Source: a virus
Lineage: Duplodnaviria > Heunggongvirae > Uroviricota > Caudoviricetes
Length of the DNA stretch: 45,879 bases
IMG/VR virus record: IMGVR_UViG_3300001687_000020
Reading direction: 5' to 3' (one strand)
Positions 2,963-33,352 of this stretch are shown here, in pieces. The notes under the pieces are model-generated. The model was not told where the DNA came from and did not search any database. It worked only from the letters and a program-made list of their open reading frames with translations. Both the position numbers and the translations under genes were made by a program. Each line of letters begins with the position of its first letter. The first letter of the stretch is position 1.

Positions 2963-4906
2963 TTATAAAATAAAGAAATTCAAATTAATCTTTTCAACTA
3001 ATTTCATTGGTTGAAGCTCAATATTGACATGGAACTGTTTGGTTTTAAGTTCATAGTCGGTTGCCCCAACTTCAACACCATAAGAATACAAACCTCTTCT
3101 TCGCTTAATGTCTTCTAAGAATAAAGTAATGTCTGAAGCAACTCTATCCCAAGTTTCAGCATCGTTTAACTCAAAAATAAAATATCTACAATATTGTTCC
3201 AATGCCTTTTTAACATAAAGGATCATTCTAACAACATTAAGGTCTTGTAAACTACTTGGTTTGGACTGGGAAGTTAGTTGACCCCAGAATACATAACCCT
3301 GAGCGAACTTAACAATTGGGTTAAGTTGCTTCAAATACATATCATCTCGGTCACTTAGAGTTGGGTTATATCGAAGTTCTTTAATTCCATCCAAAGTTCC
3401 TCCGGGGAATCCTACAAAACCTGCCCATACTTCTCTCACTGAATCATTTCTTGGTAATAAATAAGAAGCATGCCAAGTCGGACTAACCCACATATCCTGA
3501 CCTGTGAAGTTATCATAAACCTTATTAAAGTTGCAAAAGAGTGACATATAATAATTATTATATGTATGAGAATTTGTCCTATCCGTTAATTCGTTTGCAA
3601 CCGTGGAGTTATCACTATTATCAATTATTCCTATACAATCCCTTCTTGTGGTACATAGGGTATTAATAGCGGTTTTAACATCGGTGGGATATCCTGCGTC
3701 CCACACAACATTAAAGTAATAACTTTCAGTGTCTAAAACTGACTCTTCGGTGACTGAAGTCATAGGATTTGTCAATAACCCAGTGTATGCTTGAGCAAGA
3801 ATTTGGGTAGCAACTGTGGTATTTAAATTTCCTCCCACTACAAGAGTTCCAACTGAACCCTTAGAAAGTGGAGTTGCATCAGATAACGCAGTTGCCATAT
3901 TGACATAAGATTTTCTAACTTGATAAGTGATTTCCCCGCCTGAGTCAAAATTAGTAGTACTACCAATCCAACTTTGAGTTGCTCCAGTCAAGTTTTTGGA
4001 ACTAAAAACATTAATAGTTCCATTCGTCACACCGGAAGATGCTCCCAACCAACCCCAAAGTTCATTTCCTCGCTGATCCTTTGCTATTACTACATAATTA
4101 GCAGTTCCTGTCTCGGGGTTTGTTTGCCATTGACTAAAATCCTGCTTATTATCACTGATGGTGGCAGAGCCGGCTGTTTCGATTACATCAATATCACCTT
4201 GATTTTTGTCGTAAACTCGGGTACATAAATTGTAGCCAGCAGTTCCCTGCTCTGCTCGTAAAACTGAGGAATAGTTTTCTAAAATCTCATTAATGTAAAT
4301 TGAAGCACCGGCTAAGTCAACTGCAGTTGGGTCAAATGAGATTTCAAAACTTTCAATAATTTGGTCAGTCTCATCAGATTGTCTTTCATAAATATCCAAA
4401 ATGTAAACACCATAATACATTGGATTAGATTGCTGAGTCAACTTAACACTTATTCCATTATAATAATCCCCTCGACCAATAGGATATAAACAACAAATAG
4501 GATAAGTAGTTCCATCTTGAGCCATATTAGTTTCAAGAACTGAAAGACTTGTAGCAGAGGAAATATAACTAAAACTTAAAGTTGTAGTACTATCGCTTTC
4601 ATTCGCGTCAATCCTAATATTGGAATAAGTGGCGTTTGAGGGTAATGCTCTACAACAATAAAGTGATCCTGATTCACCCAAAAAGTTATAAGCAATATAT
4701 GGACCAAGACCATAGTTTTTGGTATAATCAGTTATATCTGGCTCGCCAAACTCAGAAATATAATCCGACCTAGAACTTTTCTTTACTAATTGGTTATCCC
4801 TACCTTTTACACTAAGGAATGAGATAAGTCCCGTAGTTGCCGGAACTGCCTGGACATATGTACTTAGGTCAATAATCTTAGTATATACTCCCGGACTTAT
4901 AGCCAT
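2963..4906 (-). CDS. Tail sheath protein
   Basis: 647 aa; N-terminal SPGVYTKIIDLS and C-terminal sheath domain (RRDCIGIID, LNPIVKF, WGQLT, LQDLNVVRM, FELND, IELQPMKLVEKINLNF). Confidence 0.95.
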   Translation of the reverse strand: MAISPGVYTKIIDLSTYVQAVPATTGLISFLSVKGRDNQLVKKSSRSDYISEFGEPDITDYTKNYGLGPYIAYNFLGESGSLYCCRALPSNATYSNIRIDANESDSTTTLSFSYISSATSLSVLETNMAQDGTTYPICCLYPIGRGDYYNGISVKLTQQSNPMYYGVYILDIYERQSDETDQIIESFEISFDPTAVDLAGASIYINEILENYSSVLRAEQGTAGYNLCTRVYDKNQGDIDVIETAGSATISDNKQDFSQWQTNPETGTANYVVIAKDQRGNELWGWLGASSGVTNGTINVFSSKNLTGATQSWIGSTTNFDSGGEITYQVRKSYVNMATALSDATPLSKGSVGTLVVGGNLNTTVATQILAQAYTGLLTNPMTSVTEESVLDTESYYFNVVWDAGYPTDVKTAINTLCTTRRDCIGIIDNSDNSTVANELTDRTNSHTYNNYYMSLFCNFNKVYDNFTGQDMWVSPTWHASYLLPRNDSVREVWAGFVGFPGGTLDGIKELRYNPTLSDRDDMYLKQLNPIVKFAQGYVFWGQLTSQSKPSSLQDLNVVRMILYVKKALEQYCRYFIFELNDAETWDRVASDITLFLEDIKRRRGLYSYGVEVGATDYELKTKQFHVNIELQPMKLVEKINLNFFIL

Positions 4907-10503: not shown

Positions 10504-10986
10504 TTACTCTGCTATCTCATTAAATATCCAACCCGCTAAAAGGGCAGTAGTAATTCCCAATGTAAAACTAAATCCTGTTTTGTATGAGTTCCACTTTAAT
10601 GCAGTTAAATACTTCTTTTGACTCTTATCTAACTCCTCTCTGTATAAAGAGATGTCTTCTTTCAGCAAATCATTATTACTGATATATAGTTTGATCCTTT
10701 CATCTTTAGATTCTAAAAGTTCTTGGTTAAATATATGAACCTTATTAAGGTTTTCTAATTGCTTGGTTTTTAATACATTAACTTCACGTAAAGTCTCTAT
10801 TTCTTCCAATACTTTTTTCCACTCTTCCACTTCTAATCCTATTAGTTCTTTATTACATGTCTGTCCAGGTTCAAGAAATACTGGATTAAGATTTAATTCT
10901 TCTCCTCTAGCACAAAAAGCAAGGAATAAGATAAGGAATATTACTATGAGTCCTACTATAAGTAAATCCTTTCTAAATTCACTCAT
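10504..10986 (-). CDS. Signal-peptide, coiled-coil, C-terminal TM protein (spanin-like)
   Basis: 160 aa; hydrophobic N-terminus, coiled coil, C-terminal FTLGITTALLAGWIF; abuts 10986-11342. Confidence 0.55.
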   Translation of the reverse strand: MSEFRKDLLIVGLIVIFLILFLAFCARGEELNLNPVFLEPGQTCNKELIGLEVEEWKKVLEEIETLREVNVLKTKQLENLNKVHIFNQELLESKDERIKLYISNNDLLKEDISLYREELDKSQKKYLTALKWNSYKTGFSFTLGITTALLAGWIFNEIAE

Positions 10987-11342
10987 TATAAACTCCTTAT
11001 TTTATCTATTACATCAGATGCTTTAGAAGTATTTATCTTAACTTTTTCTTTAACTGAAGCAATTTCTTTATCTAATTTCTTATTCTCCTGGATTAAAGTA
11101 GATATTTCATTCCCTTTCCAATCATCCATTTTTTCTAATTCTTTAATCTTATCAGAGTTTTGTTTCCTTTTCTCCTCTTTCACTTTCAGTTTTTCGTCTA
11201 GTTCTTTCTTCTGTAAATTTAATTTGGTTTTCTCTAGAAGGTAATGACCCCTTCCTTTCAATATTATTATTCCTAGTATCGCCAGGGCTATTGTCCCTAG
11301 AAGTATAAAGAATGCCTTTAGGTTCCTGAATATGGATTTCAT
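10986..11342 (-). CDS. N-terminal TM plus coiled-coil protein (i-spanin/Rz-like)
   Basis: 118 aa; AFFILLGTIALAILGIIIL then Lys/Glu-rich coiled coil. Confidence 0.6.
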   Translation of the reverse strand: MKSIFRNLKAFFILLGTIALAILGIIILKGRGHYLLEKTKLNLQKKELDEKLKVKEEKRKQNSDKIKELEKMDDWKGNEISTLIQENKKLDKEIASVKEKVKINTSKASDVIDKIRSL

Positions 11343-11791: not shown

Positions 11792-12224
11792 ATAACTTAA
11801 ATAGTCCTACAAACAAAGTTCCTTTCTCAAGGAATGGTTCATAGTCCAATACTATTAGCCTTACAAATTCATAGTCTTCGTGATTAAAAACTAAGCAATG
11901 TTGCCCATTACGAATCTCTGTTTTTAATCCATTAATAACTTTATCAGCTTGAATGATATCTTTATACCCTCGATATCCTCTATAAGTCGATAAAGCCATT
12001 TTAATTAAAGACGAAGTAGTATGAGGTTCTTCTTCTCCTGACTTAGAGTAAACTCTAGTAGTAACTCTTGGATTAACTATTATGTCAGGAATATAATATA
12101 CTCTTTCTTCATTAGAAATTCTTTTCTTATTTGGTTTAATAACTTTCGGTTGAATAACTTTGTCTTGCTTTGGATCCATTAAGTGTGTTTCTTGTTCTTC
12201 GATAGTTTCATTAAACTTATCCAT
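11757..12224 (-). CDS. Hypothetical protein
   Basis: 155 aa; RBS GAGG; preceded by late-promoter motif. Confidence 0.75.
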   Translation of the reverse strand: MDKFNETIEEQETHLMDPKQDKVIQPKVIKPNKKRISNEERVYYIPDIIVNPRVTTRVYSKSGEEEPHTTSSLIKMALSTYRGYRGYKDIIQADKVINGLKTEIRNGQHCLVFNHEDYEFVRLIVLDYEPFLEKGTLFVGLFKLFGSEEDDGDKL

Positions 12225-12243
12225 TTCATTGACCTCTTTCTTA

Positions 12244-12256
12244 TAATAGTTTGTTC
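12244..12256 (-). promoter_or_regulatory. Putative late promoter GAACA-AACTAT-TA
   Basis: Plus strand taatagtttgttc, upstream of the RBS of 11757-12224. Confidence 0.75.
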
Positions 12257-12299
12257 TGTCAAAAAATTCTACTCGTCACTCTTCTTTCCAACTATTAGG

Positions 12300-12579
12300 T
12301 TCTCCCTTTGTAGGGGAAAAATACATAGATTTTAATAAGTCTAAGAAAAATCTTAATCTACTTTAAAAGAGACTTTAACTAAAACAGATTTTTCTCAGAA
12401 CCGTTCTAGAAGTTCATAGTAAATTTATTTCATATCAGTATAGGGCATTTCTTATAGAAGAATATCACATAGAACTGTTCTGAAAACTTAATCAGTCTTA
12501 AAATATTACTTTTGATAAGTTAAAGATTTTCAGTTCGGTTCTGAACATTTTATAAGAAATTGCCCCTACAAAGGGAGAA
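12300..12579. other. Non-coding palindromic element, candidate ncRNA / MITE-like element / origin
   Basis: 17-bp perfect terminal IR (12300-12316 / 12563-12579), internal AGAAC-n-GTTCT palindromes, long internal hairpin 12441-12568; no ORF of 60 aa or more. Confidence 0.6.
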
Positions 12580-12592
12580 AAAAATTTAATCC

Positions 12593-12766
12593 TTACTTAG
12601 AACTCTTCTCGATCTTATGACCAAGACCCACAATACCCAAAGCTGCTCCAAGCATAAGAAGTGCATTACCAACTTCAACTCTACCAAAAAACTCTAAGAC
12701 TGCAGCAATACCAATAATTCCTGCCGCAGTCCAAGTTTTCCAACCACCCATAATGTCTTTAAGCAT
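12593..12766 (-). CDS. Small two-TM protein (holin-like), 57 aa, absent from ORF track
   Basis: RBS AGGAGG; MLKDIMGGWKTWTAAGIIGIAAVLEFFGRVEVGNALLMLGAALGIVGLGHKIEKSSK. Confidence 0.85.
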   Translation of the reverse strand: MLKDIMGGWKTWTAAGIIGIAAVLEFFGRVEVGNALLMLGAALGIVGLGHKIEKSSK

Positions 12767-12775
12767 TCTATCCTC

Positions 12776-13588
12776 CTAGTTTAAACAAGTCCCACAATTC
12801 GAGCAAAAATTAGACCCAGAAGAAGAAGACCTGCCACAAGTAGAGCAAGTCAACTTTTCCCTAGTTAAAAGAGGCTTTTGAATAGGGACTTGTTCTTCGG
12901 TTATGCCTCTTAACTTAAGAGTTATAACATGAGAAATTCCTAACCCTCCAATTGTAGTAGAATCAAACTTTTGATTACTATGAGATCCTTTAACTGTAAT
13001 ACCTTCATCTTTTTGGATATCTCTAATGTCAGCCTGCATATTTAAATTCTCAGCTTGATTACAACATTTAGTAGAGTTATAAAAAGAATGAACTCCTCTT
13101 GATAAATTTTCAGTAGTACTACTCAAATAACTCCAACCAATACCTGGTTCAAATTTACCAGAATAAGTCGATGTTCCGCAAGGAAAATCACTTTTTATAG
13201 TAAAAGGATACCCTGTATAATACTGATAGTGTTCCTCAAACTGAAATTCTACTCTGACTATTCCATCGTCAATTCTATCGCCTCGGTAATTAGCAATCTC
13301 TCTAGTTTTCTGAATAAACTTAAACTTATTGCTTACGTCACTTCCTTTGAGAAATCCCTCTAAAAAGAGAGTATTTTCCCTTCCTGGACCACTTCCAGGA
13401 ATAACAAGTCGGGAGCGATCTAAGACATCCTGACCATCAATAGAAACTTTTACTATCACCCTCCTTGAGTCCATGTTTTTTAAACCAATTGAATATTCTG
13501 ATCCAAATGGTAAAGAAACATAGCCATCTTTTTCTCTCAGAGTTTGACCATTACATTGAATTGTGACTATAAAATTACTAGTAAACAT
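12776..13588 (-). CDS. Conserved-type phage protein with C-terminal double zinc ribbon
   Basis: 270 aa; LPFGSEYSI.LKN...VSIDGQDV N-domain and CSTCG...FCSNCGT C-terminus; RBS AAGGAGG. Confidence 0.85.
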   Translation of the reverse strand: MFTSNFIVTIQCNGQTLREKDGYVSLPFGSEYSIGLKNMDSRRVIVKVSIDGQDVLDRSRLVIPGSGPGRENTLFLEGFLKGSDVSNKFKFIQKTREIANYRGDRIDDGIVRVEFQFEEHYQYYTGYPFTIKSDFPCGTSTYSGKFEPGIGWSYLSSTTENLSRGVHSFYNSTKCCNQAENLNMQADIRDIQKDEGITVKGSHSNQKFDSTTIGGLGISHVITLKLRGITEEQVPIQKPLLTREKLTCSTCGRSSSSGSNFCSNCGTCLN

Positions 13589-13676
13589 TACTTCCTCCTT
13601 TTAACAGGTTACTGACTAGAACCTCTCAATTCTTAAAGTCAGTTGGAAAAGGTTAGAGTGACGAGTAGAAACTATA

Positions 13677-22885: not shown

Positions 22886-23368
22886 TTATCCATATATTTT
22901 TTCTATCTCTAAAAGAGACATTTCTGTATAGTTATGATTGGAATCTTTTAACTTTAACTTTTTAAGATTTTCACCTTCTCTATAGTCAACGTGGACCCAT
23001 CCATATTTAGGATATTCAAAAATAACAGTTCTGAAGTCCAAAGTATTATTAATAAATTTGACTATATCAAGTAAAGGAATATCACTATTCCAAGGTTCAA
23101 TGTCAGCTGCCTCACCCCTACAATGATTAGAATACTTTGAACCACCTATAAGTATGTTTAAAGCAACACTGCGAAAACCAGAAAGTATATGAATAGGGCC
23201 AAATTCATTTCTTATTGGTTGTAAAACATTTCTTGCTAATAACTCAATACTTTTCCATTGCTCCTCAGTAGGAGTATTATCTATATTATGACGAATAGCG
23301 GTTTCTGATTTTATAAACTCATAGTACTTAAAATTTGGGCATCCTGGGATTTTGGCATTCAGAATCAT
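22886..23368 (-). CDS. Peptidase M15 (Zn D-Ala-D-Ala/L-Ala-D-Glu type) endolysin
   Basis: SGFRS..LN..IGGS..SNHCRGEAADI and GWVHVD motifs; likelier start ATG 23368 after GGGGA (track start 23401). Confidence 0.9.
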   Translation of the reverse strand: MILNAKIPGCPNFKYYEFIKSETAIRHNIDNTPTEEQWKSIELLARNVLQPIRNEFGPIHILSGFRSVALNILIGGSKYSNHCRGEAADIEPWNSDIPLLDIVKFINNTLDFRTVIFEYPKYGWVHVDYREGENLKKLKLKDSNHNYTEMSLLEIEKIYG

Positions 23369-23510
23369 CTTTACAAGTCCCCATTTGTGAAGTTTTCTCA
23401 TCTGGTTTATATATATCTAATCCATCTTTCGACTGAATATTAGAGTTAGGATTTAAGTAATTACCGGGGTTATATACTTGAATATTGAAAAAACTATTGT
23501 TAATGTCCAT
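23328..23510 (-). CDS. Small hypothetical protein (60 aa)
   Basis: ATG at 23510 one base after the upstream stop, RBS GAGG; part of track ORF 23328-23582. Confidence 0.45.
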   Translation of the reverse strand: MDINNSFFNIQVYNPGNYLNPNSNIQSKDGLDIYKPDEKTSQMGTCKDDSECQNPRMPKF

Positions 23511-33156: not shown

Positions 33157-33352
33157 AGTAATGATGGAAGAAAGTTATATTACATATTTATCACTTATTA
33201 AATCAACTAATTTTCTGAGTTTAGAAACTTTTACATCAACTACAACACCTGCTTACGTTTCAATACTTTTAAACCCGGGTCTTAATAAAGATAGTTATAG
33301 ATATTTATTAAATACAATTAAGAATAGTATTCGAGGGAACAATGTTTTATAA
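33143..33352 (+). CDS. YxxYL paralogue family member
   Basis: 69 aa; SYITYLSLIKSTNFLSLETF. Confidence 0.7.
   Translation: MEMNEVMMEESYITYLSLIKSTNFLSLETFTSTTTPAYVSILLNPGLNKDSYRYLLNTIKNSIRGNNVL

Follow-up and report, generated by a model that had tools for sequence, protein, structure and literature searches.

A single-copy, lineage-specific foldback element between late genes of a large uncultivated myovirus

The locus and the anatomy of the element

The DNA analysed here (45,879 nt, IMG/VR record IMGVR_UViG_3300001687_000020; hereafter the window) covers late and early regions of a large uncultivated myovirus. The minus strand carries every gene in the first 29.3 kb, the tail sheath gene at 2963-4906 among them. 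A non-coding element of 280 bp (12300-12579) is located within a 368-bp gap between two minus-strand genes: a 57-aa gene, whose stop is at 12593, and a 155-aa gene, which starts at 12224. The neighbouring genes are all on the minus strand, and no transcription terminator was found ahead of the element. Coordinates of the features are collected in Table 1.

Table 1. Features of the element and of the adjoining genes.
Feature	Position	Strand	Remarks
57-aa two-helix membrane protein gene	12593-12766	-	GWKTW...GLGHKIEK family, weakly holin-like; co-inserted upstream neighbour
270-aa gene	12776-13588	-	C-terminal zinc ribbon; element in 3' region of its message
Leader (5') arm	13641-13670	-	Ends 66 nt before ATG of 270-aa gene (62-68 nt in relatives)
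Trailer (3') arm	12267-12293	-	Followed by U6 (12261-12266), then by putative GAACA...TATAAG promoter of 155-aa gene (12256-12240)
Left terminal arm	12300-12319		Imperfect palindrome by itself, small CCCT/AGGG hairpin; 17 nt perfect with 12563-12579
Right terminal arm	12560-12579		Preceded on the minus (mRNA) strand by a U7 run, just past 57-aa stop
Left-half hairpin	12340-12399		14-bp stem 12340-12353 x 12386-12399, 13/14 complementary
Right-half long hairpin	12438-12569		Outer stem 12438-12459 x 12548-12569, 17/22
Inner stem of right-half hairpin	12471-12486 x 12527-12542		13/16
Palindromic box 1	12395-12409		Core AGAAC-N-GTTCT
Palindromic box 2	12469-12483		Holds minus-strand GAACA-N6-TG match at 12480-12468
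Palindromic box 3	12530-12544		Degenerate left half; overlaps start of plus-strand promoter-like site
Promoter-like GAACA-N3-TATAAG	12543-12556	+	Outward through right arm, ends 6 nt before arm; antisense to 57-aa gene

The 57-aa product belongs to a family with 14 homologues in high-GC phage contigs, in which GWKTW and GLGHKIEK are invariant; PHROG 297 (holin) was matched by two of ten members of the family (E 2.5e-4). The palindromic element was found downstream of none of the 14 homologues. The family is common to this AT-rich myovirus and the high-GC phages (L045-L058), and in the latter the homologue is usually followed by a gene with a TraR/DksA-type zinc-finger-like product. Elsewhere in the window, 10986-11342 gave a weak hit to an Rz-like spanin and 22886-23401 an M15 peptidase; added to the 57-aa holin-like gene, they suggest a dispersal of lysis functions across the late region.

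Homologues of the 270-aa product were found at 37 loci in IMG/VR and JGI metagenomes (36-50% identity), the closest relatives by this gene in these collections reaching at most 46-50% identity. The 155-aa product is an ORFan that matched only itself among 5.8 billion proteins; its gene is also present on a second contig. In relatives the 270-aa gene is followed by a homologue of the 232-aa gene and then by the sheath gene. Since the 270-aa and 232-aa/sheath genes are adjacent there, the 6.5 kb at 12775-6266 of the window constitutes an accessory island, and the element sits at its head. The island holds ~14 mostly ORFan genes that are missing from relatives, and three modules consisting of a stem, a U-run (U6) and a GAACA promoter are found in it (at ~12293-12240, 9844-9769 and 6624-6584). 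In several relatives a reverse-strand moron (~80-100 aa) occupies the equivalent site, past the terminator of the 270-aa homologue (L006 6830-7250; L010 1013-1440; L011 1748-2160; L012 2230-2745), and carries its own AT-palindromic promoter (TTAATATATATA). The site after this terminator is an insertion hot spot.

The element is bounded by a terminal inverted repeat that is perfect over 17 nt (12300-12316 / 12563-12579), as the preliminary description of the sequence had it, and that matches at 19 of 20 positions when extended (12300-12319 / 12560-12579). The right arm, like the left, is a small imperfect palindrome on its own. A hairpin in the left half is present in the minimum-energy folds of both strands. 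The right arm had also been proposed to enter an alternative stem enclosing 12471-12542, and this was borne out by the outer and inner stems of the right half. These pairings had been called competing: the alternative stem does overlap the terminal stem, by only ~7-10 nt, but the minimum-energy folds contain the two together. Three blocks are arranged about a single dyad axis near 12439, namely the arms, the boxes at ~12392-12408/12470-12486 and 12347-12359/12518-12530. The description of the left half as a degenerate inverted copy of the right holds for these blocks but not for the interiors as a whole, whose global alignment was not significant (score 30 vs 12 ± 9 in shuffles, shuffle maximum 50).

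The GC content of the element is 27.9%, and that of its interior 24.6%, compared to 34.5% in the late module. No ORF of at least 20 aa lies wholly within the element and no tandem repeats were found. A tblastn comparison of 1516 ORF products, from the window and its relatives, against the element returned noise only; no coding remnant was detected and an origin from a decayed gene was rejected.

The structure of the element exceeds chance. Its predicted RNA fold has an energy of -76.6 kcal/mol on the plus strand (z -6.3) and -69.1 kcal/mol on the minus strand (z -5.0), with 0 of 200 shuffles as good in either case, and the fold of the ssDNA gives a z of -4.5. On either strand the result is one and the same Y shape, which the terminal helix closes; a full-length rod is 6-19 kcal/mol worse. 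Nine perfect 15-mer inverted-repeat seeds within 1.5 kb were observed, compared to 0.35 in shuffles. Long-range perfect inverted repeats of at least 16 nt number just three in the 46-kb window (6608/7011, 12267/13670 and the element itself), and the other two are leader-trailer pairs around genes. Wobble pairs had been taken to favour a plus-strand RNA; that strand does have more G-U pairs (9 vs 5) and a lower energy (-75.9 vs -68.5 kcal/mol), but the difference is weak and not decisive.

Leader-trailer pairing of the 270-aa message

The trailer arm is complementary to the leader of the 270-aa gene over 16 + 9 nt, of which 16 nt pair perfectly with 13655-13670. A leader-trailer helix around the 270-aa gene is present in at least eight distant relatives (L002, L005, L006, L019, L021/L003, L037 and L038). 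The helices of these relatives comprise 10-18 perfect bp and are lineage-specific in sequence, with the same geometry throughout (P = 0 to 0.02 vs shuffles): 38-68 nt separate the end of the 5' arm from the ATG, and 6-16 nt separate the stop from the start of the 3' arm. Arm pairs are found at 977-994/1908-1925 in L002, 5913-5927/6805-6819 in L005, 66-79/1014-1027 in L019, 119-133/1000-1014 in L037 and 1863-1877/2739-2753 in L038. Different sequences in the same geometry provide strong comparative evidence for a functional end-to-end pairing of the predicted RNA.

A conserved, structured 5'-UTR motif was also observed at 13590-13640 in the window (minus strand), where it separates the 5' arm from the RBS of the 270-aa gene; it recurs in the leaders of relatives (L002 at about 1000-1055, L012 at about 1330-1385, L029 and L031). 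In this motif a hairpin (GACTTTAA ... TAGTC) encloses a GAGG box, and ACCCTGT comes next, immediately ahead of the RBS; the motif may be a translational operator.

In this window the 3' trailer arm lies 493 nt after the 270-aa stop. With only 6-16 nt at this place in relatives, the 57-aa gene and the element together represent a lineage-specific insertion into the conserved helix, in support of the insertion suggested earlier. In the predicted fold of the 1.4-kb minus-strand RNA, the outer leader-trailer helix and the closed element form together.

Precedents exist for the outer helix. The fold-back of the hok mRNA is one of the two closest, for the leader-trailer helix only. The other, again for the outer helix and not for the element, is the functional pairing of the 5' and 3' UTRs in the Bacillus subtilis hbs mRNA (PMC5737220). 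Neither hbs (PMC5737220) nor hok has a large foldback domain inside the closure.

Copies, palindromic boxes and promoter-like sites

The preliminary description had called for a search for further copies or homologues and for target-site duplications, and neither were found. The element has no second copy in the window and no counterpart in IMG/VR (searched by the arm 17-mer or by the arm-pair pattern), in 58 related loci or in GTDB genomes, and no similar DNA was found in GenBank phages. Three arm-pair hits in GTDB proved to be unrelated GC-rich repeats and not copies. Rfam 15 covariance models gave no hit in the window at gathering score and only chance-level matches in 12100-12800 (E at least 0.2), and no tRNA or tmRNA was detected. 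The flanks of the element (ATTAGG / AAAAAT) show no direct repeat at any plausible boundary, and no transposase or recombinase was found among the window proteins tested.

It is unlikely that the element is the relic of a small mobile foldback element, MITE-like or REP/BIME/ERIC-like, that landed in a 3' UTR. Such a relic would have no function of its own and would be tolerated because it folds on itself. Its terminal repeats of 17-20 bp, its length, its AT-rich interior without an ORF, its status as an insertion relative to the relatives, at the head of the accessory island, and its mosaic of short motifs in both orientations, which resembles BIMEs, would all suit this origin; the ends without duplication, the single copy and the lack of a transposase among the proteins tested argue against it. 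REP/BIME and ERIC sequences of enterobacteria are short palindromic units in alternating orientation that lie in the 3' parts of transcription units and stabilise upstream mRNA; they form families repeated throughout a genome, in contrast to the element, an orphan. MITEs, which occur in prokaryotes and viruses, are defined by a target-site duplication of 2-10 bp and by multiple copies (PMC11602168). The element resembles them in its terminal repeats (at least 10-15 bp in MITEs), its size (50-800 bp), its intergenic position and the absence of a transposase or an ORF, but has neither the duplication nor the copy number (PMC11602168), and the MITE-like character proposed earlier thus stands for its shape only.

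The AGAAC(C/T)GTTCT palindromes noted previously were recovered, at 12397-12407 and 12471-12481, and a third, degenerate box was added to them. Allowing up to two mismatches, a 15-bp consensus derived from these same three boxes has three matches in the window, all of them inside the element (0.15 expected). GAAC/GTTC words also reach their window-wide maximum in the element (9 per 280 bp vs a mean of 1.8). The three boxes, repeated and each palindromic, look like binding sites for a dimeric protein. A search for paired AGAAC-N-GTTCT boxes in other viral contigs returned 14 hits, all of which were unrelated coding sequences or tandem repeats.

Gene-proximal sites in the window and its relatives consist of GAACA, an A/T-rich spacer and often TATAA(A/G), the usual form upstream of late genes in relatives being GAACA-WWW-TATAAA. 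GAACA...TATAA(A/G) is taken here as the putative late-promoter motif of the phage group. The plus-strand site at the right arm is the element's best match to this form, with no gene after it, and its order of promoter and then arm mirrors the leaders of relatives, in which a promoter precedes the 5' arm. Five sites of the form GAACA-N(2-7)-TATAA(A/G) are present in the window, compared to 1.1 ± 1.1 in shuffles in a post hoc test, and two of the five (at 12256 and 44020) are gene-proximal. Having been found post hoc, the plus-strand site in the element is only a lead. Two more plus-strand matches, at 2956-2969 (in a 610-bp gap adjoining the sheath gene) and at 33337-33352, could be extra late promoters or chance occurrences. 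Derivation of the element by duplication of the neighbouring promoter was considered and rejected, the shared 10-mer not being significant (P 0.2). Sigma-70-like promoters were fewer than in shuffles.

These sites bear on a second alternative, by which the element is regulatory DNA: the boxes would serve as operators to which a protein dimer binds, possibly that of the factor recognising GAACA in the late promoters, and the plus-strand site would launch an antisense RNA across the 57-aa gene. Confinement of the boxes and concentration of the GAAC words in the element argue for this, as do the overlap of box 3 with the GAACA of the plus-strand site, the match of that site to the late-promoter form of relatives with an arm 6 nt later (as the 5' arm in relatives), a chance of ~0.007 of finding such a site in a given 280 bp, and a target gene whose family is weakly holin-like. 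The promoter test was post hoc, however, no plus-strand terminator follows, no candidate DNA-binding protein was identified, the boxes stand 74 and 61 bp apart, which is unusual for operators, the similarity to the promoter of the 155-aa gene is not significant, and the paired boxes of other contigs are unrelated; on balance regulatory DNA is a distinctly unlikely explanation. Improbable as a whole is an extended scheme in which a foldback cassette built from the late-promoter core word GAAC would bind a dimer of the late-promoter factor at its boxes and, through antisense transcription across the holin-like gene from the outward plus-strand site, act as a late-phase lysis-timing switch inside an mRNA end-to-end helix.

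The arms could also be read as recombinase sites, each with two half-sites around an asymmetric spacer of 4-6 bp, so that a flip of the segment would aim the internal promoter-like site at the 155-aa gene. The inverted arms do lie 240 bp apart on either side of a segment that bears a putative promoter, each is an imperfect palindrome with an asymmetric centre, and a single promoter-like site stands beside one of them. Such an inverton is nevertheless very improbable: none of the window proteins tested was identified as a recombinase, a putative promoter of its own already serves the 155-aa gene, and the other two long inverted repeats of the window behave as RNA leader-trailer pairs. Moreover, inversion would change little, since the interior is partly symmetric about the same axis.

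On the minus strand, a late promoter had been placed in the element at 12468-12480, from which a late sRNA would start. GAACA-N6-TG is literally present there (12480-12468), but the pattern is at chance level, with 21 occurrences in the window compared to 15.2 ± 3.8 in shuffles. The six intergenic sites have an A/T-only spacer, a T-run in front and an RBS downstream, none of which accompanies this match; G comes after its GAACA, a position that is A or T at every one of the six gene-proximal sites; TATAAG stands 19 nt downstream and not 3-6 nt; and no RBS or ORF comes after it. The late promoter consensus of phage AR9 is AACA-N6-T(A/G), or AACA-N6-U(A/G) in RNA letters (PMC7598289). The six sites of the window fit this consensus, but relatives do not keep the N6-T(A/G) spacing, and the match in the element is no commoner than chance and has no gene downstream (PMC7598289). 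The proposed minus-strand sRNA of ~205 nt, running from 12468 to the U6 with its trailer arm acting in trans on the 270-aa leader, can draw on the literal promoter match and on the complementarity of trailer and leader; with a chance-level promoter pattern, and with read-through supplying the same arm in cis, we regard it as highly improbable. A replication origin or packaging site, also raised previously, is scarcely credible, for although the element is AT-rich and has repeated palindromic boxes and the potential to form a cruciform, the GC skew is unbroken at 12.4 kb, its only turn being at 29.4 kb, where the direction of transcription switches, and the element lies inside a late transcription unit, has neither an initiator nor a terminase gene next to it and lacks conservation among relatives.

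Interpretation of the element

Our tentative preference, put at somewhat below an even chance, is that the element is a co-transcribed, self-closing foldback domain of a 3' UTR that leaves the conserved closure of the message intact. On this view a late minus-strand message would have received, in its 3' untranslated part, a foldback insertion that is single-copy and lineage-specific. Messages of the 270-aa gene in this phage group would have their 5' end paired with a trailer just past the stop codon. The 57-aa holin-like gene and then the 280-nt element would have been placed between the 270-aa stop and the trailer arm, and the element would be transcribed within the 270-aa message. In the cell, the 17-bp terminal helix would close the element into a three-way-junction domain with one hairpin per half. 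Because the element's own ends pair, the trailer would effectively stand ~20 nt past the 57-aa stop, and the end-to-end helix could form. This reading is supported by the position of the element, which has the 57-aa stop (12593) on one side and the trailer arm (12293-12267) on the other, by the excess of structure over chance, by the conserved closure in relatives and the joint fold of outer helix and element, by the two other long inverted repeats being leader-trailer pairs, and by the lack of an ORF or coding remnant. The terminal helix is not a terminator, since no U-run follows it on either strand. The likeliest function, if any, would be that of a bulky 3'-UTR RNA domain which acts on message stability or processing, either by blocking 3' exonucleases or by offering an RNase III-type site for double-strand-specific processing.

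Several points count against the 3'-UTR domain. No relative carries the element, so that its helices are not open to a covariation test. The arms of the boxes are self-complementary, which an RNA helix does not need, and the repeated palindromic boxes therefore tell against an RNA domain. G-U counts and energies slightly favour the plus strand, and the mRNA is the minus strand. The same picture would be expected of a neutral insertion.

Among known systems, Correia elements (CREE) are flanked by a TA duplication; the element has no duplication. Like the element, the CREE/NEMIS of Neisseria are non-coding, bounded by inverted repeats, located in transcribed intergenic DNA and able to fold as an RNA hairpin, and an outward-facing promoter is possible at an end (PMC2649163). 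The CREE hairpin is bound or cut by RNase III (PMC2649163). CREE are 100-155 bp long and present in hundreds of copies, whereas the element is 280 bp long, single-copy, located in a phage and without sequence similarity to them (PMC2649163). By analogy, the element may work most like transcribed palindromic elements of the Correia/ERIC/BIME type (PMC2649163). PeSL cassettes of T4-type phages offer a likeness in location, at the edge of an accessory ('hyperplastic') island in a T4-like late region (PMC2839356, PMC4122927); PeSLs are short and repeated, carry an early promoter and lie in direct orientation, whereas the element is a 280-bp foldback without a copy (PMC2839356, PMC4122927). With no second copy in the searches above and no U-run after its terminal helix, the element is not assigned to the PeSLs.

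Taken alone, the element is an orphan structured spacer that may be neutral, and its position is the informative part. It shows that the conserved end-to-end helix of a late message can take up an insertion of 470 nt, made up of a gene and a self-closing RNA domain, with its arms kept. This bears on how accessory genes enter the late operons of large phages. If the plus-strand promoter or the boxes are functional, the locus would represent a rare case of antisense or operator control beside a holin-like gene in a T4-like phage.
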